The notes under the pieces: generated by a model
The model's database searches: none
Seen by the model: only the letters and a program-made list of their open reading frames with translations
Told to the model about the DNA's origin: nothing
NCBI GenBank assembly: GCA_964593405.1
Contig: CAZQIO010000001.1
Location: 2,263-66,262 of the forward strand
Reading direction: 5' to 3'
From: an uncultured Candidatus Saccharibacteria bacterium
GTDB lineage: Bacteria > Patescibacteriota > Minisyncoccia > Minisyncoccales > GBS-2
Length of the DNA stretch: 64,000 nt
Position numbers and translations under genes: made by a program
Shown: positions 28,873 through 52,853 of the stretch, piece after piece
Numbering within the stretch: the first letter of the stretch is position 1
How the letters are laid out: each line of letters opens with the position of its first letter

Positions 28873-28912
28873 AGTTAAGATAAAACTTCGACAATTTCTT
28901 TTTTGCCGAGTT
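28873..28912 (+). terminator. possible intrinsic terminator after the PAP2 gene
   Basis: GAAGTT-aagataaa-AACTTC hairpin followed by a T-rich run (TTTCTTTTTTG). Confidence 0.25.
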
Positions 28913-28924
28913 TTTATTTTCATT

Positions 28925-28970
28925 TTATAATGGATTAATGCGCTTTACCGTTTCAACAAAAGGATTCGTT
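28925..28970 (+). repeat. remnant copy B of the yjbQ promoter-proximal 5' end
   Basis: TATAATggatTAATGCGCTTTACCGTTTCAACAAAAGGATT matches the first ~30 nt of yjbQ (41041-41070), then diverges. Confidence 0.55.
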
Positions 28971-29154
28971 GTGAAAACACCAGAATACTCGTTAAAATAA
29001 GACTTCCTCCAAGGAGCGAAATGACCAAGAAAAAGCTGGCAGTTAAGGCTTAATTTTTAATGGGATGTCATCCATATTTTTTGGCATCATGGACAATATC
29101 CCAGCAAATGGCTTAAATTTGAGCTGGAAGTAATGATATAACTGGGTTTTAAGT

Positions 29155-30103
29155 TTGGAAATCACTTCAATCGCAGAACAGTTATTATTCACCGGCGTCA
29201 GGATAGAAAGTATAGTGGTCGAAAATAAACGAAAAATCGGGACAGGTTTTATTCTTGATTACAGAATGGAGGGCAAAAGCTATCCGTTCATCATAACAGC
29301 AAAGCATATTATTAGCGGAGCCGAAGAAGGAGTATTAACTTTTATTAAAGGCAAAAGAAACATACCGCTTCTTGGAGAGGGTTATCAGTTAAAAATTAAG
29401 GATTTTGAGAAAATTTAGTTTAAGCATCCAAGTGAAAACATTGATGTAGCAGTATCACCTTTTGTTCCTATTCTTAACCATATTGCAAATCAAGAAATCC
29501 AAGTATTTTTTAAATCAATACCTAGCGATTTGATTCCCAAAAATGCACAACTAAAGGAATTTGACGCGATAGAGGATATTCTCTTTATTAGGTTATCCCA
29601 TCGGACTATGGGATGAGAAAAATCTTCTTCTTATTGTAAGAAGAGGTATTACCGCAACTCTAGTATTTGTAAACTTTAATGGTGAAAGGCAATTTTTAAT
29701 CGACGCTTCTATCTTTCCGGGTTCTAGTGGAAGCCCTGTTTTTATTTATGACAGAGGAATTTATTGGAACAAAAAGTCAGAAGCTACGGTTGGTGGTCAC
29801 AGAATCTTCCTTTTAGGAATTCTTTCAGCTGTTTTTCGGATGCCCGATAGAGGAGAATTGATCTTTCCAAGCGAACGAATACACACCCTTACAGAGCATG
29901 GCGAAGCAGTGTTTTTTACGAATGAAAAAGTGAGGATTAAAGTAAATCAACTAGCAGACTTAGGAATAGTTTTTAAATCAGAGATAATAATTGAAACTAT
30001 AAACAAGTTTCTGAAAGGAAACGTAATGCATGCCTATGGCGCTCCACAATATTTCGCATACATAATCGATAAACACTTACATAATAGCCTCCTAATCCTC
30101 TGA
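29155..30103 (+). pseudogene. trypsin-like (S1/Trypsin_2) serine protease, disrupted by an in-frame TAG (29416-18) and a frameshift near 29590
   Basis: Catalytic triad segments lie in three frames or pieces: ITAKHII (His), NIDVAVS (Asp), and IDASIFPGSSGSPVF (Ser, GxSGxP). Confidence 0.6.
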
Positions 30104-30273
30104 ATACAAATCATGGAACCATGAATAATATCTCACCGAGTGAATTAAGTTTGAACTGGAAGTAAAAGTGTGATGTTATAGCAGCATCTTTTAGCATAGA
30201 AAGAGATGATTAAATAGCTAACTAAAAAATTATTCTTCTTTAACTGTCTCCTTAACATAAGCGATTTTGGGTT

Positions 30274-30471
30274 TTATTGTTTCTTTTCTTTCTTCTTTAC
30301 AAGCCAGTAGACTATTCCAGCGATTATCCAGCATATTATCGTGCTTATTGGCGTGGAGGAACAGTGAGCGTAGTGGCCTAGCAGGCAGGATCTACTTGCG
30401 GGGGCGGGGATTAATGTTGAAACCCCTAAAACAATAAATATTACTATTAGAACCCAGTGATACCCCTTCAA
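30274..30471 (-). CDS. small two-TM membrane protein (hypothetical)
   Basis: 65-aa ORF with two hydrophobic helices and a Lys-rich tail. Confidence 0.25.
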   Translation of the reverse strand: MKGYHWVLIVIFIVLGVSTLIPAPASRSCLLGHYAHCSSTPISTIICWIIAGIVYWLVKKKEKKQ

Positions 30472-30866
30472 TAAATTTTCCTCCTATATATCGGATGTTA
30501 TTATTTTAACTCAAGATGTTTATAAAATTTTGGATGATAACAAGGATTAAATCTGCATTTCTCACACCTTTTAATGGAGTTGGTATAATGCCGCGGAATG
30601 CTCAAAGGTTATTGATAAGATTCTAGAGATGTTGATGGATGAAACGCTACCCTCAAAGAGAAAATAGAGAGATGGAATAATCTTTCAGAGAAGTTTGCCG
30701 AGTGCATAGGTGGGCGTTTAAAGGAGTTAGTAAAGGAAATGAAGATAACTGAATTAGAGGTGCAGAAGCTAGCTCAGGAAATTTTAGAAGAAGCAACCAT
30801 ATACGCTAAACATCATCGTGAAAATTAATAGTTTATCAATTTTAAGAATAAAAGCCTGAATAAAAT

Positions 30867-31795
30867 TCAATTTAAAACTTTAAGCCCAGCCTTATCATAG
30901 ATTTCCTTCAGTTTCTCTGGGCTGAAATCCGTATAATGTCTTGCAAGTACGCTTCTTGGAACCCTTCCGCAGAAGGCATCAACATATCTGTCCGGGACGC
31001 CTAGTTTTCCCATTTCGCAGGCAAACCATTCCCTCAATATTTGAGGCGTAATGCTTAAACCAGTTTTCATTCTGGCATCGAGGAATATCCTGTGCTTTTC
31101 GTTCGTCTTCATCGGGAAGAGTTTATCGCTCTTTTTTAGCCTAATCTTTAGTCATTCCTTTAAAGGTTTTTCAGCCTCTTCGTTGTAGAAGGTTATGTAG
31201 CTTCTTTTTGTTCTGGAATTATGTCGGGGAAATATCGTTCTCTTTTCAAAATCGATGTCGCTTAGCTTCAACTTTAGGGCTTCGCTTCTCCTTAATCCAG
31301 AGGAAGCTAATAAAAGAAAGATCGCCTTTTCTCTTAAATCCTTCAAGGCTTGGTAAAATCTTTGAAGCTCTTCTTTTGAAGGGACCTTTTTAATCGTTGG
31401 GCTTGGATTTGGGAATTTGAAGCTTGGACCAAGTCTGGCCTTCCTAAGAAATCTCTGAAAAACCTCTACAAAGCCTTCAACATGTTGGCATAGCTATACG
31501 GATTTCCATCCCTCAAAGTTAAAAGGAAACTCCTAATATCTCCAACGCTCGGGAAGTCAATGCCATTTTTCTCTATCCAAGCCAAAAACTTCCGCACATT
31601 GTAGATGTGTTGCCCCACCGTCTGTTTCGAAAGCTGAAGGTTAACCAAGCAAAATTCTGCGAATTTCCTCAGCACTTCCTGGAAATCAGATATTCTCTCA
31701 AAGTTATTCTCCTCATTCTCCATTCTCCCTTCAAATTGTCCCAATTTGAATTCTAAGCCATCTTTGAGCCTGTCACGCTGAGGACCCGGGTTCAA
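30867..31795 (-). pseudogene. tyrosine recombinase/integrase (XerC/D-phage integrase family), one frameshift (~31470-31495) and one in-frame TGA (31152-54)
   Basis: N-terminal SAM-like domain (ISDFQEVLRKFAEFCLVNLQLSKQTVGQHIYNVRKFLAW). Catalytic box I LLLASSGLRRSEALKLKLSDID. Box II ITPQILREWFA...RSVLARHYTD with the Tyr. Pieces 2 and 3 are in the same frame across the TGA. Confidence 0.75.
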
Positions 31796-31813
31796 ATCCC
31801 GGCGGCCACACCA
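31786..31813 (+). other. orphan tRNA 3' fragment (T arm + acceptor 3' strand + CCA): candidate att core
   Basis: CCGGG-TTCAAAT-CCCGG, then CGGCCAC, then A-CCA. No complementary 5' acceptor strand (GTGGCCG) lies upstream. Abuts the integrase N-terminus. Confidence 0.55.
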
Positions 31814-32061
31814 TTCATCACTGTTTTTTTGTCTCCTTTTTTCCGTAAAGAGGTCTTAATTGTTTTATTGCCATTTTCAAAGCATTTTCACAAGTCCTTG
31901 AAATATTCAAGCCCAATTCCCTTGCCTCTTTAACAACATCCTCGTCGATATAGATGGTTACACTTATTTGCTTACCCAATTTTATTTGCCTCCATTTGGA
32001 ATTATGTGGAAATCAAATTTAAGGATTTCGCATGCAAAGCCATGCGCCCTGAGGATGGAGA

Positions 32062-32859
32062 ATGGCGATGGCGAGAATAGTGAGAATAAAGTTGTATAAG
32101 AATTCTCTAGGAAATTTTTATGAAGAGGAGAAAGAGATGTCAGAGGCTGTTGCGCCGAGAAGGTTTGTCATTCCGAGGCTTTTGGCTTGGGTTATGGTTT
32201 TTGCTGGAATAGGCATATTCGTTATCGGTATTCCATTTCTTATGTATAGCCTTTTCATGTTTAGTTTTGTTAGGCGCTTCGACCCTACCGGCATTATCCT
32301 GATGATCGTTGGTGCAATCGTCTTTTACGTTGGATACAAAAATACGGGCTTTATACTGACTAAGGAAGAGATAGTAGATAGGTGGAGCGTTTTAGTTGAG
32401 AACGGCAAGGGAAAGGCAAACGAGATCTTCGATGATACCGAAGGCTTCATTAGGAAAAGCCAAGCTCCAAGGATTGCTGTCGAAAGGAGGGAAATTGTCC
32501 CTACGATAACAAAGGACATCCTGGGCGTGAGGAGAAGGTTTTTGGTCGTTACTAAACTTGAGAATCCAAAGCTTTTGAATTACAAGACCTTCATTTGCGC
32601 TAGGGATTATGGAAACAACCTCGATGTTTCGTGGTATTTAACGTATAAAATGGGCTTTTTCGAAGCTTTATTGAACCTATTATTTCTCAGAGGAAGATTT
32701 GTTCCAAAACTTGACTTGTTCGACGAGCAGGATTTAAGAGCTTATATGACAAACGTCCATCACTGCCTTTTAAAAGCCGTTGAATCTTTAATGAAGAGCT
32801 TGGGGCAAGACTTTTCTAAGGTTGACAGAAAATCTATAGGTTTCTTGGGCGTTAGTTGA
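32062..32859 (+). CDS. membrane protein (two N-terminal TM helices + ~180-aa soluble domain), hypothetical
   Basis: Hydrophobic segments LLAWVMVFAGIGIFVIGIPFLMYSLFMF and GIILMIVGAIVFYVGY. 4-nt overlap with the downstream ATPase. Confidence 0.4.
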   Translation: MAMARIVRIKLYKNSLGNFYEEEKEMSEAVAPRRFVIPRLLAWVMVFAGIGIFVIGIPFLMYSLFMFSFVRRFDPTGIILMIVGAIVFYVGYKNTGFILTKEEIVDRWSVLVENGKGKANEIFDDTEGFIRKSQAPRIAVERREIVPTITKDILGVRRRFLVVTKLENPKLLNYKTFICARDYGNNLDVSWYLTYKMGFFEALLNLLFLRGRFVPKLDLFDEQDLRAYMTNVHHCLLKAVESLMKSLGQDFSKVDRKSIGFLGVS

Positions 32860-34142
32860 TGGGAATTCTTGATAGGCTGCTTAGGCGGAAAAAGAAGGAA
32901 AAAGAGGAGGTTGAAGTAGAGGAGAAAGTCGAAGAAGCTCCAGTCGAAGTTGACGAGGGAAATGTTGTAAACATTGGCTGGTATTGGTCTGAGCAAAAGC
33001 AAGAGTGGCAGATGGCAAAGATTAAAGAGGAGGATAGGAAAGTTCACTTTTACGTTGTCGGTGCCTCTAGAACTGGAAAGTCAAAGTTCCTTGAGTTTTT
33101 GATTAGACAAGACATTGAAAAGGGAAATGGCTTCGGAGTAATCGACCCTCACAGGGATTTGATTGATGATATTAAGGCTTATCTAACATTAGCCCTGCCG
33201 AAAGAGGAGTTGGAAGAGAGAGTTGTAGTAATAGACCCAACAGATGAGAGGTATACCGTCGCCTTCAACCCTCTTGAGAAGATCAAGAAAATGTTATCTG
33301 CCGAGATAGCAGCCGAGCTCGTCGAAGCCTTCAAGAAGATTTGGGATTATGGGAGCGCCATCGAAACTTACGGTTGGGGTGCTAGGATGGAGGATTTGCT
33401 TAGGAACTCGCAAATAGCCCTAATAGAGGCTGGACTCACGCTATGCGACCTACCACGTTTTCTAATAGAGGATGACTTTAGGGAGAACGTCTTGGAGAGG
33501 GTTGAGCATCCAATAGCAAAGAGGTATTTCCAGAGGTTTAATGCCTTAGCCCCAAAAACGAGAGAGGAATGGATGGAATCTACACTGAACAAAGTCAATG
33601 CTTTTTTATCAGATGATAGGATCAGGGAGATATTCTCATTCCAAAAATCTTCTTTCAATTTCAGGGAGATAATGGATAATAAGAAGATTTTGTTAATTAA
33701 GCTTGATAAGGGAAGGCTGAAAGAAAATGCCGACTTGCTGGGTGCGCTATTGATGACGAAGATCAGGATGGCTGCGTTCTCGAGGTCAAACGTTCTAAAA
33801 GAGAAAAGAGTCCCATTCTACCTTTACATTGACGAGTTTCAAAACTTTGCAACCAAAACATTCATTGAAACTCTGAGCGAGGCTAGAAAATATGGCTTAT
33901 CACTTATAATGGCCCATCAGAATCTTTCTCAGTTGCCGAAGGAATTGCAAGATTCAATTTTAACTAACTGCGGAATCCAATGTTACTTCAAGGTCTGTAG
34001 AAGAGATGCTGAAATATTAGCTAAAGAAGCTTTTGAGACGAGTGGTGTTGAGGTAAAAGCAGTAAAACTTTCGAGGGAGTACTCTGATTACGATTGGTTC
34101 ACATATTCAGAGGATTGGGAAAAGTACATTCAAGAGCTATAG
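32856..34142 (+). CDS. FtsK/HerA/TraG(VirD4)-superfamily P-loop ATPase (DUF87-like), no TM segment
   Basis: Walker A VVGASRTGKS. Walker B LYIDEFQNF. C-terminal RKYGLSLIMAHQNLSQLP signature shared by T4 coupling proteins and HerA. Confidence 0.6.
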   Translation: MMGILDRLLRRKKKEKEEVEVEEKVEEAPVEVDEGNVVNIGWYWSEQKQEWQMAKIKEEDRKVHFYVVGASRTGKSKFLEFLIRQDIEKGNGFGVIDPHRDLIDDIKAYLTLALPKEELEERVVVIDPTDERYTVAFNPLEKIKKMLSAEIAAELVEAFKKIWDYGSAIETYGWGARMEDLLRNSQIALIEAGLTLCDLPRFLIEDDFRENVLERVEHPIAKRYFQRFNALAPKTREEWMESTLNKVNAFLSDDRIREIFSFQKSSFNFREIMDNKKILLIKLDKGRLKENADLLGALLMTKIRMAAFSRSNVLKEKRVPFYLYIDEFQNFATKTFIETLSEARKYGLSLIMAHQNLSQLPKELQDSILTNCGIQCYFKVCRRDAEILAKEAFETSGVEVKAVKLSREYSDYDWFTYSEDWEKYIQEL

Positions 34143-34194
34143 CAGTTGCCAAACAGATGTTTTTGGGCAAAACACAAAATTGAAGGTGGTGTAA

Positions 34195-35103
34195 TTCCAC
34201 TGTACACTGTGGGAAATTAGGCAAGCTTATGAGGAGTTCGGTGTAGAGAAAGAGGTTCAGGATAAAATTCTGAGTGAAGTTGTCTTCAGTAAAAGGTATC
34301 TTTTAGAGAGAAAGCCCAAGGAAGTTGAAAAGAAGGTTAAGGAAAAGTCTAGTGAGGAAGAGAAGCTCACAGCCTTAGAGGAAATTATTGCAACATTAAC
34401 ACCTTTTGAGAAGGCGATTCTATGGGCTATAGGTGTTGGAAACTACAATTCAGCAGACATATACGAAGAGGCGAATAAGAAACTCAAAGAATGGGGTTGC
34501 TCAACCAGAAAATACTCAGAGTTTAAGAAGAAGTTTTATGAGTTTGCCAAACTACCTAAAGAGGGAGGTAAAGGATTAATAGAGTTTAGAAAGCTTGGCA
34601 GGAGCTTTTGCTATTGGCTAAGTAAGTGGGGAGAAATTGCATTTGCTGAAAAGTTTGGAATACCTTCTGATAGGGCGATAAACGAGCTTGGAGGTGGAAG
34701 AAAGCCATCAAAAACCGTAGCCTTGGAAGTCATAAAGGAGTGGCTTGAACCAAATGGATACAAGGTTAAGGCTGAGGAGGAAATAAAAACCGATTTGACC
34801 GAGAGAGGCAGAGGCTACACTGATTGGGTTGCCGAGAAAAATGGTGAAGTTTTGAGGATTGAGATTGAGCATAGAAGCCAAAAAGAGCAAGTGGAGAGGA
34901 ATATAAGGAAGAACTTAGAGTACTCAGATACACTCTACATCATAGCGAGCGATGAAACGGCGAAAAGAAAAGTTATTCAAGTTGCTTTGAGAACATTATT
35001 TAGGCTGAGGAAAGAAAAACCCGATGAAAAATGTGTGGTGAAGGTAGCTGACATTGAAGAACTGAAAAGGAATAGTTGGAATAAGTGGTTCGAGATAAAA
35101 TGA
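34195..35103 (+). CDS. winged-helix + PD-(D/E)xK nuclease-like protein; open frame of ~300 codons with no ATG/GTG/TTG before 34723
   Basis: Frame opens after the TAA at 34192-94. C-terminal GYTDWVAEKNGEVLRIEIEHRS resembles a PD-(D/E)xK core. The track only reports the TTG at 34723. Start lost, or non-canonical. Confidence 0.4.
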   Translation, partial: FHCTLWEIRQAYEEFGVEKEVQDKILSEVVFSKRYLLERKPKEVEKKVKEKSSEEEKLTALEEIIATLTPFEKAILWAIGVGNYNSADIYEEANKKLKEWGCSTRKYSEFKKKFYEFAKLPKEGGKGLIEFRKLGRSFCYWLSKWGEIAFAEKFGIPSDRAINELGGGRKPSKTVALEVIKEWLEPNGYKVKAEEEIKTDLTERGRGYTDWVAEKNGEVLRIEIEHRSQKEQVERNIRKNLEYSDTLYIIASDETAKRKVIQVALRTLFRLRKEKPDEKCVVKVADIEELKRNSWNKWFEIK

Positions 35104-35152
35104 AGGAAAACCTTATATGAGGAAAATCCACCTTTTCTATAAGTGAGAAAAA

Positions 35153-35518
35153 TTGGAGCGTTCAACTAGGAAATATAAGGCAACAAAGTTACCCGTTGAA
35201 GTATTTGATGAAGCCGAGTTAGTGAAAGCTAAGCTAATTATGAATAGGGAGGCTTTAAAGAAGCTTCCTTCAGAGGGTGCGAACCCAGCTAAATGTCCCC
35301 TTGGCGGTAATGATTTGAGGGTTGCCGAAGTTAAAGTGGCGGTAAAAATGGTCTCGTGTCAACGTTGCGGTTACAAACAACCGTCCCTAGACGTATCCAG
35401 CATTGGAAACGATCCTGCGGCAATCGCTGGAGCGTTAGGTCTGGGAGTTCTAGCGGGTCTCGGTATAGCTGCATTGCTATATTTAATATTTAGCGGTGAA
35501 AAGAATGAGCGAAGTTAG
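35153..35518 (+). CDS. small Zn-ribbon protein with C-terminal TM anchor (hypothetical)
   Basis: CPLGG...CQRCGY (two CxxC-like pairs), then AAIAGALGLGVLAGLGIAALLYLIF. The 35153 start is TTG; the first ATG is at 35240. Confidence 0.35.
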   Translation: MERSTRKYKATKLPVEVFDEAELVKAKLIMNREALKKLPSEGANPAKCPLGGNDLRVAEVKVAVKMVSCQRCGYKQPSLDVSSIGNDPAAIAGALGLGVLAGLGIAALLYLIFSGEKNERS

Positions 35519-35895
35519 GATAAAAGTCCAGGCAGATTTGAATATCATTAAAGAATTACTGATAAGAGAGGGTTTTACGATCCGGGCATTTTGCAGACTT
35601 GGAAAGAAGGCCAGGTATTTGGATTAGCTAAGCCGTTAAATTATCTAATCGAAGTTCACGTTAGGGGTTTTGCGGATAATACTTTAGATGCCGAAATAGA
35701 GTTATCACGTGAATATCTAGAACATCCCTACGACGGGAAACCTTACTACGGTTTTCTAATCGAGAACTCTAACTAAGTGGAAACCCATGCTTTTTGTACT
35801 ATGTATCATTTGTGGAATATGTGGATTTTTTGCAGTTTTAGAAAGATTCGGCTCGAAGGATAATTCATTGACAAAATTAGAAGAGGAATGATACA

Positions 35896-37179
35896 ATGGA
35901 TAGAATGTTTGTGAGATTTTTATCAGAAATAAAGGAACCAAAAGCTTCAGAACTTGGAGGAAAAGGCTATTCATTAGCTGTTTTAATGAATAACGGATTT
36001 AACGTCCCGAAAGGCTTTGTCATAGTTTTAGATGCGTTCTTTGAGCATCTTAAAAAGAACGAATTGATGGAGAAAGTTAGAGAACTAGTAGCTAAAATCA
36101 ACGAGGGGAATTTTCAAAAAAAAAGCAGAGAAATTAAAGAGTTAATATTGAGCGGAGCAATACCTGAGGAAATTGCCTTAGAGGTAAAAAATGTCTTAAA
36201 TAAATTAAATGTTCAGTATGTTTCTGTTAGGTCATCTGCTGTTAGCGAGGATAGCTTAAAAGCTTCATCTGCGGGAATGCATGATACATTCTTGAATGTA
36301 AAATCAGAACCAAAACAGGTTTTAGAAAATGTGAAGAAGTGCTGGGCATCTTTATTCAATGAAAGAGCGATAATATACAGAATTAAGAAAAAGCTGCCTC
36401 ATTTAGAGGGAATGGCGGTTGTAGTTCAAGAAATGATACCAGCTGAGGTTTCTGGGGTCGCCTTTACTGCCCACCCAACGAACAAAAAGTTTTTACTTAT
36501 TGAGGCTTGCTATGGAATTGGTGATATGGTCGTGGGTGGTAAGGTGGAGCCAGATGATTATGTGGTGAATAGAGAAACTTTAGAAATAATAGAAAGAAAG
36601 ATTGGCAGGAAGGATAGAATGAGCGTTATTGAAAATGGAAAAATTAAAGTTATTGATGTCGAAAAGAAACTTGCTGAAAAACAGGTTTTATCTGATAATG
36701 AGATAAAAGAAATCGCTGAAACTTGCCTAAAAGTCGAAAAAACATTTAAATATCCTCAAGATATTGAGTGGTGTATCTCCAAAGATTTTATATGGATTCT
36801 ACAATCACGAACAATAACCGCGACATCATTGCTTATTGGAGAAAAAACAAAAATAAAACCGATTTTGAGCGGATTAGGAGCAAGCCCCGGTATAGTTAAA
36901 GGGAAAGTAAAAATTATTTTAAGTCCGAGGGAAGTTAATAAAATGAATGATGGTGAAATATTGGTTACTGTAATGACTAATCCACTATATGTTACTGCAA
37001 TACAAAAAGCCAAAGGAATAGTTACAGACGTTGGTGGCATACTTTCTCATGCAGCTATTGTAGCAAGGGAGCTTGGAATTCCTTGTGTAGTTGGAACTGA
37101 AAAAGCGACAAAAATACTGAAAGATAATATGGAGGTTATTGTAAATGGTACAGAGGGTAAAGTTTATGCACCAGACTGA
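35896..37179 (+). CDS. PEP-utilizing-enzyme family phosphotransferase (PPDK-N ATP-grasp + phosphohistidine 'mobile' domain, no PEP/pyruvate TIM barrel)
   Basis: ELGGKGYSLAVLMNNGFNVPKGFVI (PpsA N-terminus) and C-terminal GGILSHAAIVARELGIPCVVG with the swivel His. Confidence 0.7.
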   Translation: MDRMFVRFLSEIKEPKASELGGKGYSLAVLMNNGFNVPKGFVIVLDAFFEHLKKNELMEKVRELVAKINEGNFQKKSREIKELILSGAIPEEIALEVKNVLNKLNVQYVSVRSSAVSEDSLKASSAGMHDTFLNVKSEPKQVLENVKKCWASLFNERAIIYRIKKKLPHLEGMAVVVQEMIPAEVSGVAFTAHPTNKKFLLIEACYGIGDMVVGGKVEPDDYVVNRETLEIIERKIGRKDRMSVIENGKIKVIDVEKKLAEKQVLSDNEIKEIAETCLKVEKTFKYPQDIEWCISKDFIWILQSRTITATSLLIGEKTKIKPILSGLGASPGIVKGKVKIILSPREVNKMNDGEILVTVMTNPLYVTAIQKAKGIVTDVGGILSHAAIVARELGIPCVVGTEKATKILKDNMEVIVNGTEGKVYAPD

Positions 37180-38260
37180 TGATTTAATAACTGAATTATT
37201 CAGAGTTACAGGAGAGGCAATCTACGATACAGATATGCAACACGGGGATGGTAGGGATTATTGGCCCTTTCATCCAGTATTTTTAGATTCTCTTGTTGCT
37301 CCAATAGTGTTTAAAGAAATTTTAAGGATTATTGAAACATTAGAAAACAAAGGCTACACCCTAACAGACATTGCAGAAACAGTATACAGTCCAACTAAAA
37401 TAGCTAATTACCAATATTTGTGGCCAGAAAAAACAATCAAATCTTTAACCTATGACGAAAAATACAAGCTCGCAAAATATTTCGTTGAGTTACTAACGAT
37501 TTTGAGAAATGGTGAACCTTTTTGTGAGAAAGGAAGAAACTTGGTATGGACCAGAAAGAACTTAATCCAAAATATAGAAAAATATAAGAAAGATTTTGTA
37601 AGTGCTAAACAAAACCCTGAAATGGCTCAACTTTTGTCGAAGCTAGAAGGAATTCTAGTTTCTTATGCGGAAGCGCTGTACTATTACATGATTGACTTAT
37701 CACGTATGATGCATGGTCCTTATTCACTTGAAAATGGATCTACTGTTTTTGTAAAGGAATATCTTCACTTAAAGGCTGGAGAACTTTGGGATGTGGTTTC
37801 AGATTTCCCTTTTGACCATTTTAAAGAGATCGGAATTTATCAAGGCATACAAATAACTACTTTCTTTATGGGACATACACACTCAAATCCACCTTTCCCA
37901 AAAGCAATAGATAAATTCGTTATAATCGTAGATGATAAAGTAATAAAAAATATGGACGAGCTGAGAAATTTATATGAAAAGGTAAAAGAAGTAACAGAAA
38001 GAGCAGCTCGATGTATAGCAGAAAAGTCTGGCGATGAAGCTTTTCTTCTTAAGAAGGGAATTGATATGTTTTTCTATCCATTAAAACCTCTCTACAAGGA
38101 AATAGGAGAGAACTGGAAAGATATACTTCCACAAGCATATAAGTTTGCATATAATGTGAAAGATAAAATAAAAGTTCCTGGACCCTGGGGTGATTGGAAT
38201 AAAGAGAAAGCAGTAAGTCACCTTCTAAAACTAATGGATTTTCGGAGGAAAGCAAGATGA
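37166..38260 (+). CDS. hypothetical protein, translationally coupled to the phosphotransferase (ATGcaccagacTGA overlap)
   Basis: 365-aa ORF starting MHQTDDL. No motif recognised. Confidence 0.4.
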   Translation: MHQTDDLITELFRVTGEAIYDTDMQHGDGRDYWPFHPVFLDSLVAPIVFKEILRIIETLENKGYTLTDIAETVYSPTKIANYQYLWPEKTIKSLTYDEKYKLAKYFVELLTILRNGEPFCEKGRNLVWTRKNLIQNIEKYKKDFVSAKQNPEMAQLLSKLEGILVSYAEALYYYMIDLSRMMHGPYSLENGSTVFVKEYLHLKAGELWDVVSDFPFDHFKEIGIYQGIQITTFFMGHTHSNPPFPKAIDKFVIIVDDKVIKNMDELRNLYEKVKEVTERAARCIAEKSGDEAFLLKKGIDMFFYPLKPLYKEIGENWKDILPQAYKFAYNVKDKIKVPGPWGDWNKEKAVSHLLKLMDFRRKAR

Positions 38261-38484
38261 TAACAGAGTTCTGCAGTTACAAGCAAACTCTAATAAATAT
38301 GATGAAGATTATCCGTAAACCTATAGAATCTTTTGCTATTGATACAAACACCACTTACCTTTACTTTGAAAAAACGCTTTACCTCCAATAGGTCCAACCA
38401 ATTCTAGAGAAAACTATATGATGCCTTTTCTTATTTTAGTAACCAACCCCCTGTTCTCATGTCTTAAAGCATGGTGGATGTACG

Positions 38485-39183
38485 ATGTGCGGGTATTCAA
38501 ACCTAGCTACCTTTAAAGATAATATTACCGGAGATGTGGTATACGAACAGTTTAGAAGGGGGTTTGAGATTATCAAAAAGATTCCTCACCATGAAATGGT
38601 TGCTATTGGAACCGCTGGCTCATTTTTAGACCCACATGAAGTTCCATACGAAATCCAAGCAAAAATAATAAAAGAACTTAACTCTTCAGGTGATATATAC
38701 TACATAAACATTGAAATAAGAGCAGAATATGTGACTAAAGAATCTCTTGAAAATTTGGTAGAAGTAGTCGATGATCCACATAAGTTAGCTATTGGAATCG
38801 GTTTAGAAAGTTCAAATGAGCTTATAAGAGAGTTATGTGTCAATAAATGTCTACCTATCGCCTCTTTCATCCGAGCTAAAAGATTGCCTGAAGAATTGCG
38901 AAAAAATGTACTTATTGCGACTCCAAGATTGCCTAAGCCCTTAGAACTTAAAGTAAGTGACGGTGCTCAGACGGCAATAGAATTATTAAATGAATATAAA
39001 GGCACACTAGACTATAATTATATCGATGCTATAGATGCCCTTTCAAGCTCTGATAAGAGAAAATGGTATGAGAATTTGGAAAGAGAAATGAACAACTCTG
39101 ATTCAATAGAAAAACCAATATCTACGAACTTTAGCCGTTGGCTGGAGGCGTGGAAAAATGAGCATGGAAGAATATTTCAATAA
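38485..39183 (+). CDS. hypothetical protein; in-frame upstream extension carries a C-x8-C-x2-C cluster
   Basis: MCGYSNLATF... Upstream in frame, PTPCSHVLKHGGCT runs back to a TAA at 38440. Possibly a truncated metallo or radical-SAM-like enzyme. Confidence 0.3.
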   Translation: MCGYSNLATFKDNITGDVVYEQFRRGFEIIKKIPHHEMVAIGTAGSFLDPHEVPYEIQAKIIKELNSSGDIYYINIEIRAEYVTKESLENLVEVVDDPHKLAIGIGLESSNELIRELCVNKCLPIASFIRAKRLPEELRKNVLIATPRLPKPLELKVSDGAQTAIELLNEYKGTLDYNYIDAIDALSSSDKRKWYENLEREMNNSDSIEKPISTNFSRWLEAWKNEHGRIFQ

Positions 39184-40286
39184 AAATAAAGAAAAACTTA
39201 AAGAGGTTTACGAGCTATTCCGGAATACAGATTACGGCAGGGAATTAAATCTACCCCCAGAATTTAATGATTACAACACTTTTAAAACTTTACCCCTCAT
39301 AGATCCACGAAAAGTAGATTTTAAGCGACTATTTGTTCCAGGCGATAATTTGTGGTCTTTTATATCTAGTGGAGTGTCGGGACATAGGAAGATGGTAATG
39401 AGCGATATAGGAACTATTACTAAGTATCCAGAAGAAATGGATGAAATCTTAAGAACTAATACATCTGTATTTCTCCACAGTAAGAGGAGAAAAGGTGAAA
39501 GGAGATGTACTCTTCATAATAGAATATCCCCTGATGGCAGAATGGATTTGTTATCAATTAGAAAAGGCTATAGAAGCAGGAAAAATATTTCCCGGGAATA
39601 TTAGGAAAAAGAAAGTATATTTCGAATTAAGTGGAGAACCTGTTACTGAGGAACAAGTCTGTAACATTGTAAAAAGATTAGAGAAAATATTTCAAACAGA
39701 AGTAGAATATTCTATTACATACGGCTCTACTGAGATTGGGCTTATAGGAACGTATATTCCAACAATTCATGGTTCCAAAATTAAATATGAAGTAATTCCA
39801 TCGCTTTTTGTAGAAATAGTCGATGGGGAAATAATCATTACTCCTTATAGGAAACAAGGGACAATATTATTTAGATACAAAACCGGAGACAAGGGCAAAC
39901 TATTTTTTGAAAATGGTAAACCATTCTTGAATGTAATTGGGAAATCTGAAAGTGAGGGGATTATGTATGTTGCAGGTGTTCAAGTATGCATCCCAGAGCT
40001 AGTGGCAGAAATAGAAAAAATAGCAAATTTTCCAATCGGAATAAAGGTCATCAAAAAGAAGGATCGGCCGAAAGGAGTATGCGAACTTGATATTAAAATT
40101 CATATACCTCGGCGTGATGCTTTAAGTAATAGTTTAAAAAATGCCATAACAGAAAAAACTAAACAGTTCATTACAGATTCTGCTGTTTTGTCGGTGGAAA
40201 ATCATTTAGGAATAGTGAAAATAAATATTCATTATTCTTCTGAACCTATAAAAAAAAGGTTCATTATTGAAAACTTAAAGGCATAA
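39158..40286 (+). pseudogene. PaaK/F390-synthetase-like adenylate-forming enzyme, frameshifted near 39495-39604
   Basis: ANL motifs SSGVSGHRKMV (A3, P-loop-like) in the first piece and YGSTEIG (A5) in the second. Confidence 0.5.
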
Positions 40287-46849: not shown

Positions 46850-46889
46850 CTAACCACTAAAAAATAATTACTAAAAATCACTAATTTTG

Positions 46890-47187
46890 TGGAGATGGCG
46901 GGATTCGAACCCGCGTCTGGGGGTTGACCTGGGTCTCCCTCTACGGCTATAGTCGATTTTTTAGTCTATCTGGAATACTAGTAAATCGACAAACCTAGTA
47001 TTCCACTCAAAGAAATAAAGAACAACCCCCTCAACTATGACACCTGTTCCCTAACCGAGGGGATTTAGGGACAGGCGCTTGTCTACCCGATAATTAAGCG
47101 TAGACAAGAGCAGGAGTTTGTGTGGCAGGATTTTTGGCCGCCAGAAACCCAGGTTCCTTTCCCCCATCGATTCCAAAAACCATCCCC
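46890..47187 (-). ncRNA. ssrA: tmRNA (ssrA), ~298 nt
   Basis: 5' GGGGAUGGUUUUUGGAAUCGAUGGGGG... The 3' end is ...GCGGG-UUCGAAU-CCCGC-CAUCUCC-A. The acceptor pairs with a G3:U wobble (alanine identity). Candidate tag ORF ...GCU CUU GUC UAC GCU UAA. Adjacent to smpB. Confidence 0.65.
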
Positions 47188-49373: not shown

Positions 49374-52300
49374 ATGGAACCAAATTTTCCACAAATAGAA
49401 AAACAAATACTTAATTTTTGGAAGAAAAATTCAATTTTTGAAAAAAGTCTCAAAGGAAAGAAAAAAAACTTTATCTTTTACGAAGGGCCACCAACAGTTA
49501 ATGCTCCTCCCGGTCTCCATCATGTCTTGTCTCGAGTTTACAAAGATATAATCTGTCGCTACAAGACAATGCAGGGCTTTAAAGTGGAAAGAAAGGCAGG
49601 CTGGGATACTCACGGCCTTCCGGTTGAGCTTCAGATAGAAAAAAAGTTGGGAATCAAAATAAAAAAGGAGATTGAAAAAATTGGAATAAAAAAATTCAAC
49701 GCCGAATGCAAAAAATCAGTTTTTGCCTATAAAAAAGATTGGGAAAATATGACAGAAAGGATTGGATTTTGGTTGGACCTCAAAAACCCTTATGTTACTT
49801 TCTATCCAGAATACATTGAGTCTTTGTGGTTTATTTTGAAAAAAATCTGGGAAAAAAAGCTTTTGTATCAGGATTTTAAAGTCACAGCCTTTTGTCCAAG
49901 ATGCGGCACCAGTTTATCAACTCATGAAGTTGCTTTAGGTTACAAAAAAGTCAAAGAACCAGCAATATATGTGAAGTTCAAAGTTTTAGACTCAGAATTC
50001 GAAAATACCTTTTTGTTAATTTGGACAACCACCCCCTGGACTTTACCAGGGAACGTGGCCGTAGCGGTCAATCCCCAATTCACTTATGTACTTTTTGAAC
50101 ACCACCCAACGAAAGAAAATCTGATCGTAGCAAAAGAAAGGCTTGAAAAGTTAGGAGAAAAGGGAGAGGTAAAAAAAGAATTTAAGGGCAAAGATTTGGT
50201 TGGTCTCAAATATCAAGCACCGTTTAATTTTTATCAGCCAGATCCCGACAAAGATAGAATGTTTGAGGTAATAGCTGGAGATTTTGTGAGCCTCGAAGAA
50301 GGAACGGGTTTAGTCCACATAGCTCCAGCTTTTGGTGAGGAAGATTTAGATTTGATTAAGAAAGAAAATTCAAAAAACAAAGGAAAAAAATTCCCAATCT
50401 TAATTAACGTTGACCAAGAAGGAAAATTCAAACCCGAAGTTCAAAAATGGGCAGGCCTTTTTGTTAAAGATGCCGATTCTGGCATCATTCAAGATTTGAA
50501 AGAAAGAGGTCTTTTGCTCAAAGAAGAACTTTATGAACACGATTACCCCTTTTGTTGGAGGTGTTCTACTCCTCTTTTGTACTACGCAAAAAAAAGTTGG
50601 TTTATTGGAGTAACAAAAGTTAAAAGAAATTTAATTGCCAATAACAAAAAGATCAATTGGGTGCCAGAGTTTATTGGAAAGGGAAGGTTTGGTGAATGGT
50701 TGAGGGAAGTAAAAGACTGGAATCTTTCTAGAGAAAGATATTGGGGAACACCATTGCCAGTTTGGAAGTGCCTAAAGTGCGGCAATGAAATTGTTATAGG
50801 CTCTAGGGCAGATTTGTTAGAGCAAAAATTCTCCACCAATAAATATTTGATTTTAAGACATGGCGAATCAAAAATGAACGTTAAAAAAATTTTAATTTCT
50901 ACTTTACCAGAAAAAGTGGCCTGCCCCCTCACTGAAAGAGGAAAAGCGCAAATTTTCCAAGCAGCAAAAAAGTTGAAAAAAGAAAAAATTGACCTAATTT
51001 TCTCTTCTGACCTTTTGAGAGCGAGGCAAACTGCAGAAATTGTTGCTAAAATTACTGGAGCAAAAATAATTTTCGACAAAAGATTAAGAGACATTCAGGG
51101 AGGAATTTTTGAAGGAGAAAGAATCGAAAAATTTCTTGCCTTTTGGAAAAGTTATGAAGAAAAATATACAAAAAGACCCCAAAAAGGAGAAAATTATCAA
51201 GACGTCAAAAAGCGAATGATTAAGGTAATTGAAGATTTAGAAAGAAAATATCAAGGAAAGACAATTCTCATTGTTTCCCATCAAAGACCTTTGGCAATGC
51301 TTGAAGGAGCAATGAAAGGATTTTTGATAGATGAGTTCGAAAAATTCATAGAGCCAAACTTAATCAAAACTGGCGAAATAAGAGAAATTGAATATAAAAA
51401 ATTCCCTTACAACGAAAAAGGAGAATTAGATTTTCATCGACCTTACGTTGACGAAATAAAGTTTTTCTGTCCAAAATGCCAAGGAAAAATGGAAAGAGTT
51501 GCAGAAGTTGTAGATTGCTGGTTTGATTCTGGAGCTATGCCTTTTGCCCAGTATCATTGGCCATTTGAAGGAAAATTCAAGCCTTCTTTTAAAAACCAAA
51601 AACTCAAACCGCCAAAACTGTTTCCAGCAGATTATATTTCAGAAGCTGTCGATCAAACCAGAGGGTGGTTTTACACTCTTTTGGCAGTTTCAACACTTTT
51701 GGGTTTCGGCCCTCCTTACAAAAATGTTGTTTCCCTCGGTCACGTTTTGGATGAGAAAGGAGAGAAAATGTCAAAATCGAAAGGTAATGTTGTCGATCCA
51801 TTTTACATTGTAGAAAAGTATGGAGCCGATGCCATCCGTTGGTACTTTTTCACTGTTAATCAACCTTGGGACGCCAAGCTTTTCTCTGAAAAAGATGTCC
51901 TTTCTGTTTTAAGAAGGTTTATTTTAACTCTTTGGAATTCTCATTTGTTCTTGAAAACCTACGTTCCAAAAACAAAAATAAAGAAAACAGAAAAATCAAA
52001 AAACGTTTTAGATAGATGGATTGTTTCTAGGTTAAATAGATTAATTTTGGAAACAACTCAACTTTTGGAAAAATATCAAATAACAAAAGCTGCTACCTTA
52101 ATCGAAAATTTTGTCGTCAATGACCTTTCTTTATGGTACATTAGAAGATCTCGAAAAAGATTTCAAAATCCAAAAACCAAAAAAGAATTTACGGAAGCTG
52201 CCGAAACCCTCTCTTTTGTTTTGTTGACCTTGGCTAAAATTTTAGCTCCCTTTATTCCCTTTTTAGCTGAGAAAATTTTCAAAGATTTAACTAACAAAAC

Positions 52301-52853
52301 AAAAGCTTCCGTTCATTTGGAAAAATGGCCAAGACCAAATTTAAAAGCAATCGATAGGAAATTAGAAGAAAAAATGGAAAAAGTAAGAGAAATAATCAGC
52401 CAGGCTTTAGCTGAAAGGGCAAAGACAAAGATTAAAGTAAGACAACCACTCAATCGATTGACTATTCCAGATAAAACAATCTATAAAGAAAAGAGCCTTT
52501 TAGAATTAATTAAAGAAGAAGTGAATGTTAAAGAAGTTATCGTTGGAGAGAAATTGGAATTGGACCTTTCAATTACCCCAGAATTAAAAGAAGAAGGATT
52601 GGCGAGAGAATTGATAAGACAGGTGCAGCAAATGAGAAAAGAAATGGGCCTTTTCCCAAAAAATAAAACAAAAATTTACTTTTTTGCTCAAGAAAATTTA
52701 GAAAGAATTGTTGAAAAGTACAAAAAGGAAATATTACTCCAAACAAAGAGTAAAGAGATTCTTTGGCAATTGCCTCCAAAAAACTCTTTCCAAAAAGAGG
52801 TAAAGGTCAATGACTCTTTAATAAAAATTGGATTGGTGAAATATGGTGTTTAA
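49374..52853 (+). CDS. ileS: isoleucyl-tRNA synthetase with an inserted histidine-phosphatase (PGM-like) domain at ~50829-51431
   Basis: HH (HIGH variant PPGLHH), CP1 editing domain, KMSKSKGN, and Zn knuckles CLKCG/CPKCQG. Between the two CxxC pairs sits ~200 aa with LILRHGES (RHG catalytic His), an RARQT-like motif and SHQRPL (second His). Confidence 0.9.
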   Translation: MEPNFPQIEKQILNFWKKNSIFEKSLKGKKKNFIFYEGPPTVNAPPGLHHVLSRVYKDIICRYKTMQGFKVERKAGWDTHGLPVELQIEKKLGIKIKKEIEKIGIKKFNAECKKSVFAYKKDWENMTERIGFWLDLKNPYVTFYPEYIESLWFILKKIWEKKLLYQDFKVTAFCPRCGTSLSTHEVALGYKKVKEPAIYVKFKVLDSEFENTFLLIWTTTPWTLPGNVAVAVNPQFTYVLFEHHPTKENLIVAKERLEKLGEKGEVKKEFKGKDLVGLKYQAPFNFYQPDPDKDRMFEVIAGDFVSLEEGTGLVHIAPAFGEEDLDLIKKENSKNKGKKFPILINVDQEGKFKPEVQKWAGLFVKDADSGIIQDLKERGLLLKEELYEHDYPFCWRCSTPLLYYAKKSWFIGVTKVKRNLIANNKKINWVPEFIGKGRFGEWLREVKDWNLSRERYWGTPLPVWKCLKCGNEIVIGSRADLLEQKFSTNKYLILRHGESKMNVKKILISTLPEKVACPLTERGKAQIFQAAKKLKKEKIDLIFSSDLLRARQTAEIVAKITGAKIIFDKRLRDIQGGIFEGERIEKFLAFWKSYEEKYTKRPQKGENYQDVKKRMIKVIEDLERKYQGKTILIVSHQRPLAMLEGAMKGFLIDEFEKFIEPNLIKTGEIREIEYKKFPYNEKGELDFHRPYVDEIKFFCPKCQGKMERVAEVVDCWFDSGAMPFAQYHWPFEGKFKPSFKNQKLKPPKLFPADYISEAVDQTRGWFYTLLAVSTLLGFGPPYKNVVSLGHVLDEKGEKMSKSKGNVVDPFYIVEKYGADAIRWYFFTVNQPWDAKLFSEKDVLSVLRRFILTLWNSHLFLKTYVPKTKIKKTEKSKNVLDRWIVSRLNRLILETTQLLEKYQITKAATLIENFVVNDLSLWYIRRSRKRFQNPKTKKEFTEAAETLSFVLLTLAKILAPFIPFLAEKIFKDLTNKTKASVHLEKWPRPNLKAIDRKLEEKMEKVREIISQALAERAKTKIKVRQPLNRLTIPDKTIYKEKSLLELIKEEVNVKEVIVGEKLELDLSITPELKEEGLARELIRQVQQMRKEMGLFPKNKTKIYFFAQENLERIVEKYKKEILLQTKSKEILWQLPPKNSFQKEVKVNDSLIKIGLVKYGV

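Follow-up and report, generated by a model that had tools for sequence, protein, structure and literature searches.

Does the closely packed set of open reading frames (ORFs) at 32062-35518 of a contig from an uncultured bacterium represent a working operon, a new defence system, or the trace of a mobile element? The DNA analysed here (the window) is a stretch of 64,000 nucleotides from contig CAZQIO010000001.1 (positions 2,263 to 66,262, forward strand; assembly GCA_964593405.1; Candidatus Saccharibacteria), and all coordinates are those of the window unless a related locus, designated by an L number, is named. A preliminary description had reported at this site an operon of four co-directional genes, encoding a protein with two transmembrane (TM) segments, an FtsK/HerA/VirD4-like ATPase, a winged-helix protein with a PD-(D/E)xK nuclease-like domain, and a zinc-ribbon membrane protein, and had proposed it as a candidate novel defence module. 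The locus of ~5 kb is probably the truncated, pseudogenised remnant of an archaeal-type integrative mobile element, whose core pair of genes (the 2-TM gene and the ATPase gene), where intact, would constitute a DNA-mobilization module. The copy in the window is a relic and is predicted to be unable to work.

All four frames were found open on the plus strand and closely packed, and every motif quoted for them was recovered (VVGASRTGKS, DEFQNF, RKYGLSLIMAHQNLSQLP, and GYTDWVAEKNGEVLRIEIEH). The second and third frames (gene 2, 32856-34142; gene 3, 34195-35103), taken for separate genes, proved to be two halves of one gene encoding ~740 aa. In a tblastn alignment of the intact homolog P0004, residues 1-442 mapped to 32859-34211, running through the TAG codon at the end of gene 2, and residues 443-739 mapped to 34213-35100 in the next frame. 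Readthrough of the gene 2 stop gives QLPNRCFWAKHKIEGGVIPLYTV, after which the next frame continues as the start of gene 3. A conceptual fusion of both frames retrieved more than 7,000 protein matches, the best of which were ~740 aa long and 77-81% identical at 95-100% coverage. Gene 3 had been noted to lack a start codon, and none was found in 34195-35103 until TTG 34723; the splitting of one gene by a nonsense codon and a frameshift explains this. The features of the broken gene are as follows.

32859..35103, plus strand: single pseudogene for a VirD4/TraG/TrwB-type coupling ATPase, a linker, a winged helix, and a PD-(D/E)xK-like domain
33060..33083, plus strand: degenerate Walker A motif, GASRTGKS, with an Arg codon at 33069-33071 in place of the Gly found in 11/11 aligned homologs
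34140..34142, plus strand: in-frame TAG nonsense codon, at a column with Gln or Glu in the homologs
34211..34213, plus strand: frameshift from the ATPase frame to the gene 3 frame, placed by the tblastn frame change

The Walker A motif had been quoted in this degenerate form. The family consensus for Walker A and B reads GASGTGKS ... YIDEFQNF, and the change of the conserved Gly to Arg in this copy predicts a dead enzyme, although the family as such carries both motifs. In addition, the window copy showed 15 private changes at columns that were invariant in all other aligned sequences, compared with 1-5 in its five closest relatives and 5-22 in distant sequences of the same alignment. In place of the 4-nt overlap with a TTG start reported between genes 1 and 2, a TGATG overlap with ATG 32859 as the start codon is probable because the homologs begin with MG(I/F)L.

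By its sequence, the ATPase is assigned to the type IV coupling protein family (VirD4/TraG/TrwB). Its N-terminal 450 residues passed the Pfam gathering scores for T4SS-DNA_transf (45.7 bits; cutoff 20.1), TraG-D_C (38 bits; cutoff 22), and TrwB_AAD_bind (36.9 bits; cutoff 20.5), the last over residues 60-379, a span predicted to cover the all-alpha domain inserted in the nucleotide-binding domain. DUF87 and FtsK_SpoIIIE stayed below their cutoffs (E-value 0.094 for FtsK_SpoIIIE). The earlier placement of the protein in the FtsK/HerA/VirD4 world was thus upheld by three coupling-protein models. As had been reported, the ATPase has no TM segment, and its N-terminus is charged and non-hydrophobic. 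Among NCBIfam models, the VirD4-like and TraD families came closest, with every score well short of its equivalog cutoff, and a sequence search of the PDB gave DotL and TrwB as the sole matches, both weak. The phage protein family phrog_5156, whose function is not annotated, matched the ATPase strongly (E-value 8e-47). Relatives at 25-35% identity are carried by plasmids of Streptomyces, Bacillus, Sulfolobus, and haloarchaea and by a 103-kb plasmid from Thermococcus nautili 33-3. The latter is presumably the conjugative plasmid pT33-3, which also encodes a VirB4-like ATPase and in which mutation of the VirB4- and VirD4-like genes is reported to have abolished conjugation (PMC12857230). No relaxase is known from archaeal conjugative plasmids (PMC12857230).

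The former gene 3 had been described as a winged helix-turn-helix (HTH) and PD-(D/E)xK-like protein; this was supported at the level of fold by AlphaFold and Foldseek, and the separate protein was replaced by a C-terminal region of the ATPase. The AlphaFold model of this region, built with 28 sequences (mean predicted local distance difference test score, pLDDT, 79), showed a winged helix followed by an alpha-beta-beta-beta-alpha-beta domain.

34402..34620, plus strand: winged helix-turn-helix domain, from structure prediction
34702..35097, plus strand: PD-(D/E)xK-like (Hjc-like) domain, with D at 34822-34824 and E-x-E at 34861-34869

In a Foldseek search against the PDB, the top match was AF2093 (E-value 1e-3), aligned across the whole C-terminal model, and further matches included the archaeal Holliday junction resolvase Hjc of four species, Bax1, Can2, RecU/PrfA, the R2 endonuclease domain, and AF1548 (E-values 0.01-0.1, probability up to 0.99). 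The nuclease-like motif was found at the Hjc spacing, with D657 and, 13 residues on, E670 (numbering of the fused sequence), both invariant. The predicted order of the tail, a winged helix and then a PD-(D/E)xK-like domain, matches that of MOBC relaxases.

The C-terminal tails of the ATPases appeared to be swapped by lineage. Copies from Bacteroidota, Kryptoniota, and Armatimonadota (C-termini of L012-L014) carried another small PD-(D/E)xK-like motif (RVDVLL...ACEIS), and in one Patescibacteria copy the tail was an AlbA_2/Schlafen domain. A Nealsonbacteria locus encodes a Replic_Relax protein to whose N-terminus an Hjc-like motif (IDVFA...LEVDH) is fused. The coordinates given for the swapped-domain examples are 9959-11947 of L024 and 7168-8406 of L030.

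Gene 1, the other member of the core pair, lies directly upstream of the ATPase gene.

32062..32859, plus strand: gene 1, 2-TM protein with a cytoplasmic alpha/beta domain; likely start ATG 32137, apparently intact

Its two predicted TM helices were recovered. The start previously given, 32062, falls inside a repeat array of GAGAAT units, and ATG 32137 marks the place where the homologs begin. The structure model (pLDDT 88) consisted of two TM helices and a conserved alpha/beta domain, whose GFLG(I/V)S tail is invariant. The 202 detectable homologs were all unnamed, the protein matched no Pfam or NCBIfam family, and no informative structural relative of the model was obtained. The 2-TM protein is a constant upstream partner of the ATPase in archaea and bacteria: a gene 1 homolog was present in 27 of the 46 species-representative loci, which were fetched by the ATPase, and in 27/27 it stood immediately upstream of the ATPase gene, the stop and start codons of the two usually overlapping or otherwise nearly so. 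The 27 loci span archaea, Bacteroidota, Kryptoniota, Armatimonadota, and Patescibacteria. Such strict pairing fits the split coupling protein that had been suggested for genes 1 and 2, and we retain that arrangement as a proposal.

The genes that accompany this pair in other genomes point to DNA transfer. A gene for Replic_Relax (PF13814) was found beside the pair in 14 of 41 analysed loci (E-values 1e-27 to 1e-43), mostly from Patescibacteria and also from an Acetothermia bacterium, a planctomycete, Pseudonocardia, and one metagenome-assembled genome (MAG) labelled Thermoproteales. Replic_Relax is the MOBC relaxase family, which belongs to the PD-(D/E)xK superfamily and usually carries an HTH fusion (PMC5357655, PMC3424549, PMC12857230). 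Further, large serine recombinases (serine integrases) flank the module in L033 and L037, and on the Bacillus methanolicus plasmid pBM69 the gene for a related ATPase precedes a replication-relaxation gene and genes for conjugal transfer. Comparable gene sets have been reported from streptococcal class 8 mobilizable elements, which combine a VirD4 coupling protein, a MOBC relaxase, and an integrase (PMC5357655), and the mobilizable plasmid CloDF13 supplies a coupling protein of its own (PMC7431656). In the window and in the archaeal relatives, all that was seen in the way of a relaxase was the fused HTH and nuclease-like domain. Since a coupling ATPase, a membrane partner, and a fused or adjacent HTH/nuclease unit recur together, the intact pair is read as a DNA-mobilization module. 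The preliminary description had itself taken co-occurrence with relaxase genes as an argument for transfer, and by that argument the neighbouring MOBC genes favour transfer. Homology of all four genes to a known transfer backbone, which it had also considered, was seen in part: it held for the ATPase and its link to relaxases, and genes 1 and 4 matched no known backbone protein.

In the proposed mechanism, a 'suicidal' SSV-type integrase would insert intact relatives of the element into tRNA genes of archaea that are thermophilic or methane-cycling. The 2-TM protein, to whose gene that of the ATPase would be translationally coupled, would tether the soluble, hexameric ATPase to the membrane, as the N-terminal TM domain does in classical coupling proteins, and the winged helix would recognise a site on the element. 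The nuclease-like domain may then process the DNA, as a separate MOBC-type relaxase would near the bacterial relatives, and the ATPase would pump the DNA toward a hypothetical transfer channel, which another element or the host would have to provide.

An integrase and its attachment site (att) were found immediately to the left of gene 1.

30867..31795, minus strand: pseudogene of a tyrosine integrase of the 'suicidal' SSV type, in pieces 31466-31795, 31152-31346, and 30867-31112
31782..31813, plus strand: att core of 32 nt resembling a tRNA 3' end (T-arm, acceptor strand, CCA), within the integrase frame
31818..31979, minus strand: ribbon-helix-helix (RHH, CcdA-like) ORF, the N-terminal part of the integrase unit, Int(N); Pfam CcdA 38.3 bits, above cutoff
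31692..31727, minus strand: left arm of a GAGAAT array, in the integrase 5' region; chance expectation 0
32058..32087, plus strand: right arm of a GAGAAT array, upstream of the likely gene 1 start; chance expectation 0

The integrase pieces matched Phage_int_SAM_1, Phage_integrase, and Phage_integr_3; for the last, the archaeal phage integrase family PF16795, the C-terminal pseudogene fragment scored 26.9 bits against a cutoff of 27 (E-value 5e-6). Relative to the intact integrase of 343 aa in L017, the gene has been disrupted twice, by a frameshift near 31460 and by an in-frame stop codon at about 31150. Within the att core, the 26-nt match GGGTTCAAATCCCGGCGGCCACACCA at 31788-31813 was unique (chance expectation 0). 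The core aligns with the 3' ends of tRNA genes that adjoin the RHH gene in archaeal loci, and in the integrase frame it encodes ...CGRRDLNP..., as in L017. There, a single intact ORF holds the RHH part, ...CGRRDLNP..., and the catalytic domain in the same order as in the window. In the archaeal loci L003/L004, L007, and L029, the RHH ORF abuts a complete tRNA gene, which is the outcome expected of 'suicidal' SSV-type integration. Integrases of this kind have been reported only from archaea, and their families carry Phage_integr_3 (PMC8371274).

In the window, the integrase is unsplit, as in the attP configuration, its RHH part, att core, and catalytic part directly adjoining one another, and the window contains no complete tRNA that matches the att core. 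The unsplit integrase and the lack of a full tRNA indicate that this is not a normally integrated element. The ~5-kb piece may be the junction of a tandem array later stripped of both outer parts, or a fragment captured in another way. A duplication of the att site around the island was considered and rejected, there being no second tRNA-like copy and no convincing direct repeats between the island ends. No toxin ORF adjoins the RHH ORF, such as a CcdA/CcdB pair would have. The two GAGAAT arrays stand in inverted orientation, one on either side of the att core and the RHH gene. Ahead of the right array are the TATA-like box TTTAAGGATTT and a short CGCATG...CATGCG hairpin; this array is kept in L002-L004, L017, and L053 and is looser in L007, L029, and L054. 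The arrays may be arm-type binding sites of the integrase or the RHH protein, or transfer-origin repeats. The locus with the intact RHH-att-integrase ORF beside the module, L017, comes from a MAG labelled 'bacterium AUK142'. It also encodes what by eye appear to be a histone-fold protein and an XseA-like protein (4101-4310 and 4636-5673 of L017), assignments that may deserve a check.

The extent of the element was taken from a window composition scan and from the end of similarity to related elements.

30850..35800, no strand: GC-rich island, approximate extent

The guanine-plus-cytosine (GC) content was 0.40 for the island at ~30.85-35.8 kb (range 0.39-0.42), compared with ~0.33 in both flanks, and similarity to related elements ended at ~35798, just ahead of a host gene resembling phosphoenolpyruvate synthase. 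Nearly every gene of the island is damaged, namely the integrase, the ATPase, gene 4, and a fifth small gene, and gene 1 appears intact. The suspicion voiced earlier that the copy is inactive was therefore borne out, with greater damage than had been supposed. A second, independent metagenome assembly (ENA ERZ1669417, contig NODE_149) was 100% identical over 32896-40179; it begins at ~32694 within gene 1, so its assembler broke within the island. A small circular plasmid was considered as the form of the element, many of the homolog contigs being ~5 kb long; it was rejected, as genes overrun both ends in L052, L053, L054, and L001 and the downstream genes differ.

To the left of the integrase, 28900-30860 contained short ORF fragments only, one of which resembles by eye a fragment of a trypsin-like protease, and a direct repeat of 52 nt, 77% identical, at 29082-29133 and 30114-30165. 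This stretch has no similarity to related elements and may be further decayed DNA.

The remaining genes of the window identify its host. A full-length transfer-messenger RNA (tmRNA) was found at 46887-47187 on the minus strand (Rfam 89.5 bits, E-value 2e-33; ARAGORN was silent), and the leucyl-tRNA synthetase (9380-11854) is of the bacterial type, with its nearest named relatives, at ~60% identity, in Patescibacteria. The tmRNA and the synthetase show the contig to be bacterial, and it is probably Patescibacteria-like. An isoleucyl-tRNA synthetase of 1159 aa (49374-52853, plus strand) carried an inserted domain resembling histidine phosphatases and phosphoglycerate mutases at residues ~486-655.

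The same fused tail was present in full-length ATPase relatives from Methanodesulfokora, Methanoperedens, Bathyarchaeia, and an unclassified archaeal MAG. Close relatives truncated by the contig or the alignment came from Nitrososphaeria and Sulfolobales MAGs and one unclassified bacterial MAG, and the protein search also returned a protein of 635 aa, 79% identical, labelled candidate division WOR-3 bacterium. Nearly all full-length relatives whose host is named were archaeal. The Methanodesulfokora copy, on a korarchaeal chromosome, adjoins an archaeal ribosomal protein operon and shares ~79% protein identity and 75-76% DNA identity with the window copy. From these comparisons, the simplest reading would be a recent transfer from archaea to a bacterium, followed by decay.

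Downstream of the ATPase, the island contains two further small genes, which are accessories of one sub-lineage of the element.

35153..35518, plus strand: gene 4, small Zn-ribbon protein with a C-terminal TM helix, accessory of one sub-lineage
35505..35776, plus strand: fifth small gene, frameshifted near 35570; intact forms of 83 aa in L051 and 147 aa in L053

The gene 4 family comprises 41 cluster representatives, and in the metagenome contig L051 a gene 4 homolog follows the ATPase and is itself followed by the intact 83-aa gene. The zinc ribbon had been described as a four-cysteine one. This copy reads CPLG, in contrast to CPxC in 14/14 homologs, with the second Cys changed to Gly, and therefore one zinc ligand has been lost. 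The claim of a four-gene operon is unsupported because gene 4 had no homolog in any of the 46 genome loci; conserved across genomes was only the pair of gene 1 and the ATPase, so that a two-gene core with lineage-specific accessories takes the place of the operon. Beyond the 83-aa gene, L051 (1183-5082) encodes Nmad3, a radical SAM enzyme, and the helical domain of 5-hydroxymethyldeoxyuridine (5-hmdU) DNA kinase (HMUDK_hel), base-hypermodification genes typical of viruses.

Several observations weigh against this account of the locus. Throughout the family, the Lys of the E-x-K motif is replaced by Glu (E672), which is invariant, as are the R, K, and Q after it, and the Foldseek matches to the nuclease fold have modest E-values (0.01-0.1); nuclease activity of the predicted C-terminal domain is possible, and the domain could also merely bind DNA. 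The D...E-x-E variant is active in BamHI. Pfam gave no match for the C-terminal region, and its homology to Replic_Relax was rejected by hhalign against the 14 Replic_Relax neighbours (probability 0.2%). The D and E-x-(D/E) motifs align with those of Replic_Relax by chance in hhalign, which carries no evidential weight. With no detectable homology to Replic_Relax, the relaxase analogy rests on architecture and fold class. The idea that gene 1 is the detached N-terminal domain of longer coupling proteins was likewise rejected, as hhalign of gene 1 returned nothing with either the first 345 aa of the pBM69 protein or the gene upstream of the ATPase on the Thermococcus 33-3 plasmid. No VirB4 or other mating-channel genes were found in the window or, among the 25 most frequent Pfam families of the neighbour proteins, within ≤8 kb of 14 archaeal loci. 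Finally, the left island junction is seen in one assembly, because the second begins inside gene 1.

The lack of channel genes suggests another role for the intact pair, that of a self-sufficient DNA exporter which would bind, cut, and push double-stranded DNA out of the cell without a type IV channel, the recipient taking it up by competence or cell contact. The neighbour census covered 75 neighbour proteins of the 14 archaeal loci, and among the 25 most frequent of the 69 Pfam families matched, as well as in the window, no VirB4 or type IV secretion system (T4SS) gene appeared. The elements are small, consisting of the integrase, the pair, and variable cargo, and one or two archaeal type IV pilin genes stand just upstream of the pair in three Methanoperedens-type loci (L006 6723-8734, L008 3172-5137, and L009 4943-5449; a tyrosine integrase is also present in L006 and L008). 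Streptomyces TraB follows a comparable logic. DNA donation by a single ATPase is likewise described for Thermus TdtA, as 'transjugation' (PMC5365140). However, the ATPase scores with the VirD4/TraG/TrwB models and not with FtsK_SpoIIIE (E-value 0.094), and the MOBC relaxase near bacterial and plasmid relatives, together with the conjugal transfer genes of pBM69, points to channel-dependent coupling, so that we regard the exporter as unlikely. Less likely again is the anti-virus or anti-plasmid defence module, in which a HerA- or mad8-like ATPase would act with a nuclease effector and a membrane partner. The ATPase was matched by the PADLOC mad8 model (E-value 7e-17) and, weakly and in part, by HerA models; a nuclease-like domain is fused to it; AbiEii occurs among the neighbours of relatives; and two neighbour proteins (clusters 11 and 12) resemble DNA methyltransferases by eye. 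MADS is an operon of eight genes, mad1-mad8 (bioRxiv 10.1101/2023.03.30.534895). Only one of the eight was matched, and genes 1, 3, and 4 had no PADLOC match, so the candidate defence module of the preliminary description came down to a single-gene similarity. Moreover, the pair occupies a backbone position beside att and the integrase with varying genes downstream, whereas defence genes are usually cargo; its recurrent neighbour is a MOBC relaxase gene, and the Pfam coupling-protein models score above their gathering thresholds. Because the PADLOC similarity concerns one gene and the pair is in a backbone position, defence is little supported.

A provirus whose ATPase is a genome-packaging motor appears very improbable. 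The strong phrog_5156 match, the occurrence of SSV-type integrases in viruses, the base-hypermodification genes of L051 (Nmad3, radical SAM, and HMUDK_hel), and distant relatives in Bacillus phages would agree with it. Nevertheless, the phage relatives are just 21-27% identical, and viral packaging is little supported because no relative was present among 2.9 million IMG/VR contigs and no capsid, portal, or other virion genes were seen in the neighbour census, among the 25 most frequent of its 69 Pfam families. Least credible of all, to the point of being nearly negligible, is a functional window copy in which the TAG is read through or recoded as Gln and the frameshift is programmed or a sequencing error. 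The TAG does stand at a Gln/Glu position, and frameshifts are common as assembly errors; against this, two assemblies are identical over 32896-40179, Walker A has Arg at the essential Gly along with 15 private changes, and three further island genes are damaged. Recoding of TAG as a sense codon was rejected, since gene 4 terminates with a TAG exactly where its homologs also terminate.

The reading of the locus as the remnant of an archaeal-type mobile element with a DNA-mobilization module is thus preferred. For the window, its significance is mainly corrective: the locus is a mobile-element relic, neither a working operon nor a new defence system. An integrase type described as exclusive to archaea, unsplit and decayed in a bacterial contig, would be evidence for a flow of mobile DNA from archaea to bacteria. 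Beyond the window, the family offers a conjugation-type coupling ATPase that is presumably anchored by a protein of its own, strictly conserved and not otherwise known, and, in archaea, a predicted fusion of ATPase, winged helix, and nuclease-like domain that has the architecture of a MOBC relaxase in elements for which the neighbour census showed no type IV channel genes. The family is annotated generically only; what appears new is the detached membrane subunit and the fused relaxase-like tail on a known type of coupling protein. Neither the pair nor the fusion was described in the literature covered on archaeal integrated elements, coupling proteins, Replic_Relax, and MADS, a limited coverage that is no proof of novelty. 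As a rather doubtful extension, the intact family might be a compact archaeal transfer module in which the ATPase brings its own origin-recognition and cutting domain, the dead copy recording a recent transfer from archaea to a Patescibacteria-like host. If true, this would provide a candidate for the relaxase function never found on archaeal conjugative elements, and the intact pairs of Methanodesulfokora and Methanoperedens are a directly testable candidate.

Compared with known systems, the ATPase resembles type IV coupling proteins (PF02534, PF10412, and PF12696) in its P-loop domain with a predicted inserted all-alpha domain and in having relatives linked to relaxase genes and integrases. 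It differs in that their N-terminal TM region is part of the same polypeptide, whereas here the TM helices belong to a distinct, unrelated protein whose gene always lies just upstream; in that a C-terminal winged helix and nuclease-like domain are fused to the ATPase; and in that mating-channel genes were not found among the 25 most frequent Pfam families near the archaeal copies. With the Thermococcus nautili 33-3 plasmid protein, the ATPase core is homologous (31% identity, E-value 1e-24), but that protein has 1370 aa and other flanking regions, and the gene upstream of it is unrelated to gene 1. The C-terminal domain shares with Hjc and other small PD-(D/E)xK nucleases the fold and the acidic spacing (E in helix 1, D, and E 13 residues later), a likeness to Hjc that holds at the fold level only (E-values 0.01-0.1, 12-22% identity), and differs from them by Glu for the Lys of E-x-K and by its position as the tail of a large ATPase.

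As regards the 'suicidal' SSV-type elements (SSV1, pTN3, and pT26-2), we take the cargo and ATPase module to differ from those of the pT26-2 and pTN3 families. The likeness lies in an att site that is a tRNA 3' end inside the integrase gene, in a C-terminus that scores just under the Phage_integr_3 cutoff, and in the N-terminal fragment that abuts the tRNA gene in integrated archaeal relatives (PMC8371274). Unlike in those elements, the integrase is here unsplit, pseudogenised, and located in a bacterial contig, and its N-terminal part is of the RHH (CcdA-like) type. CloDF13-type MOBC modules and class 8 elements likewise encode their own VirD4-type protein together with an HTH and PD-(D/E)xK protein (PMC7431656, PMC5357655, PMC12857230), which is exactly the gene set of the bacterial relatives of this locus. 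The archaeal-type form differs from them in fusing the HTH and PD-(D/E)xK-like unit to the ATPase and in having D...E-x-E, not D...E-x-K.

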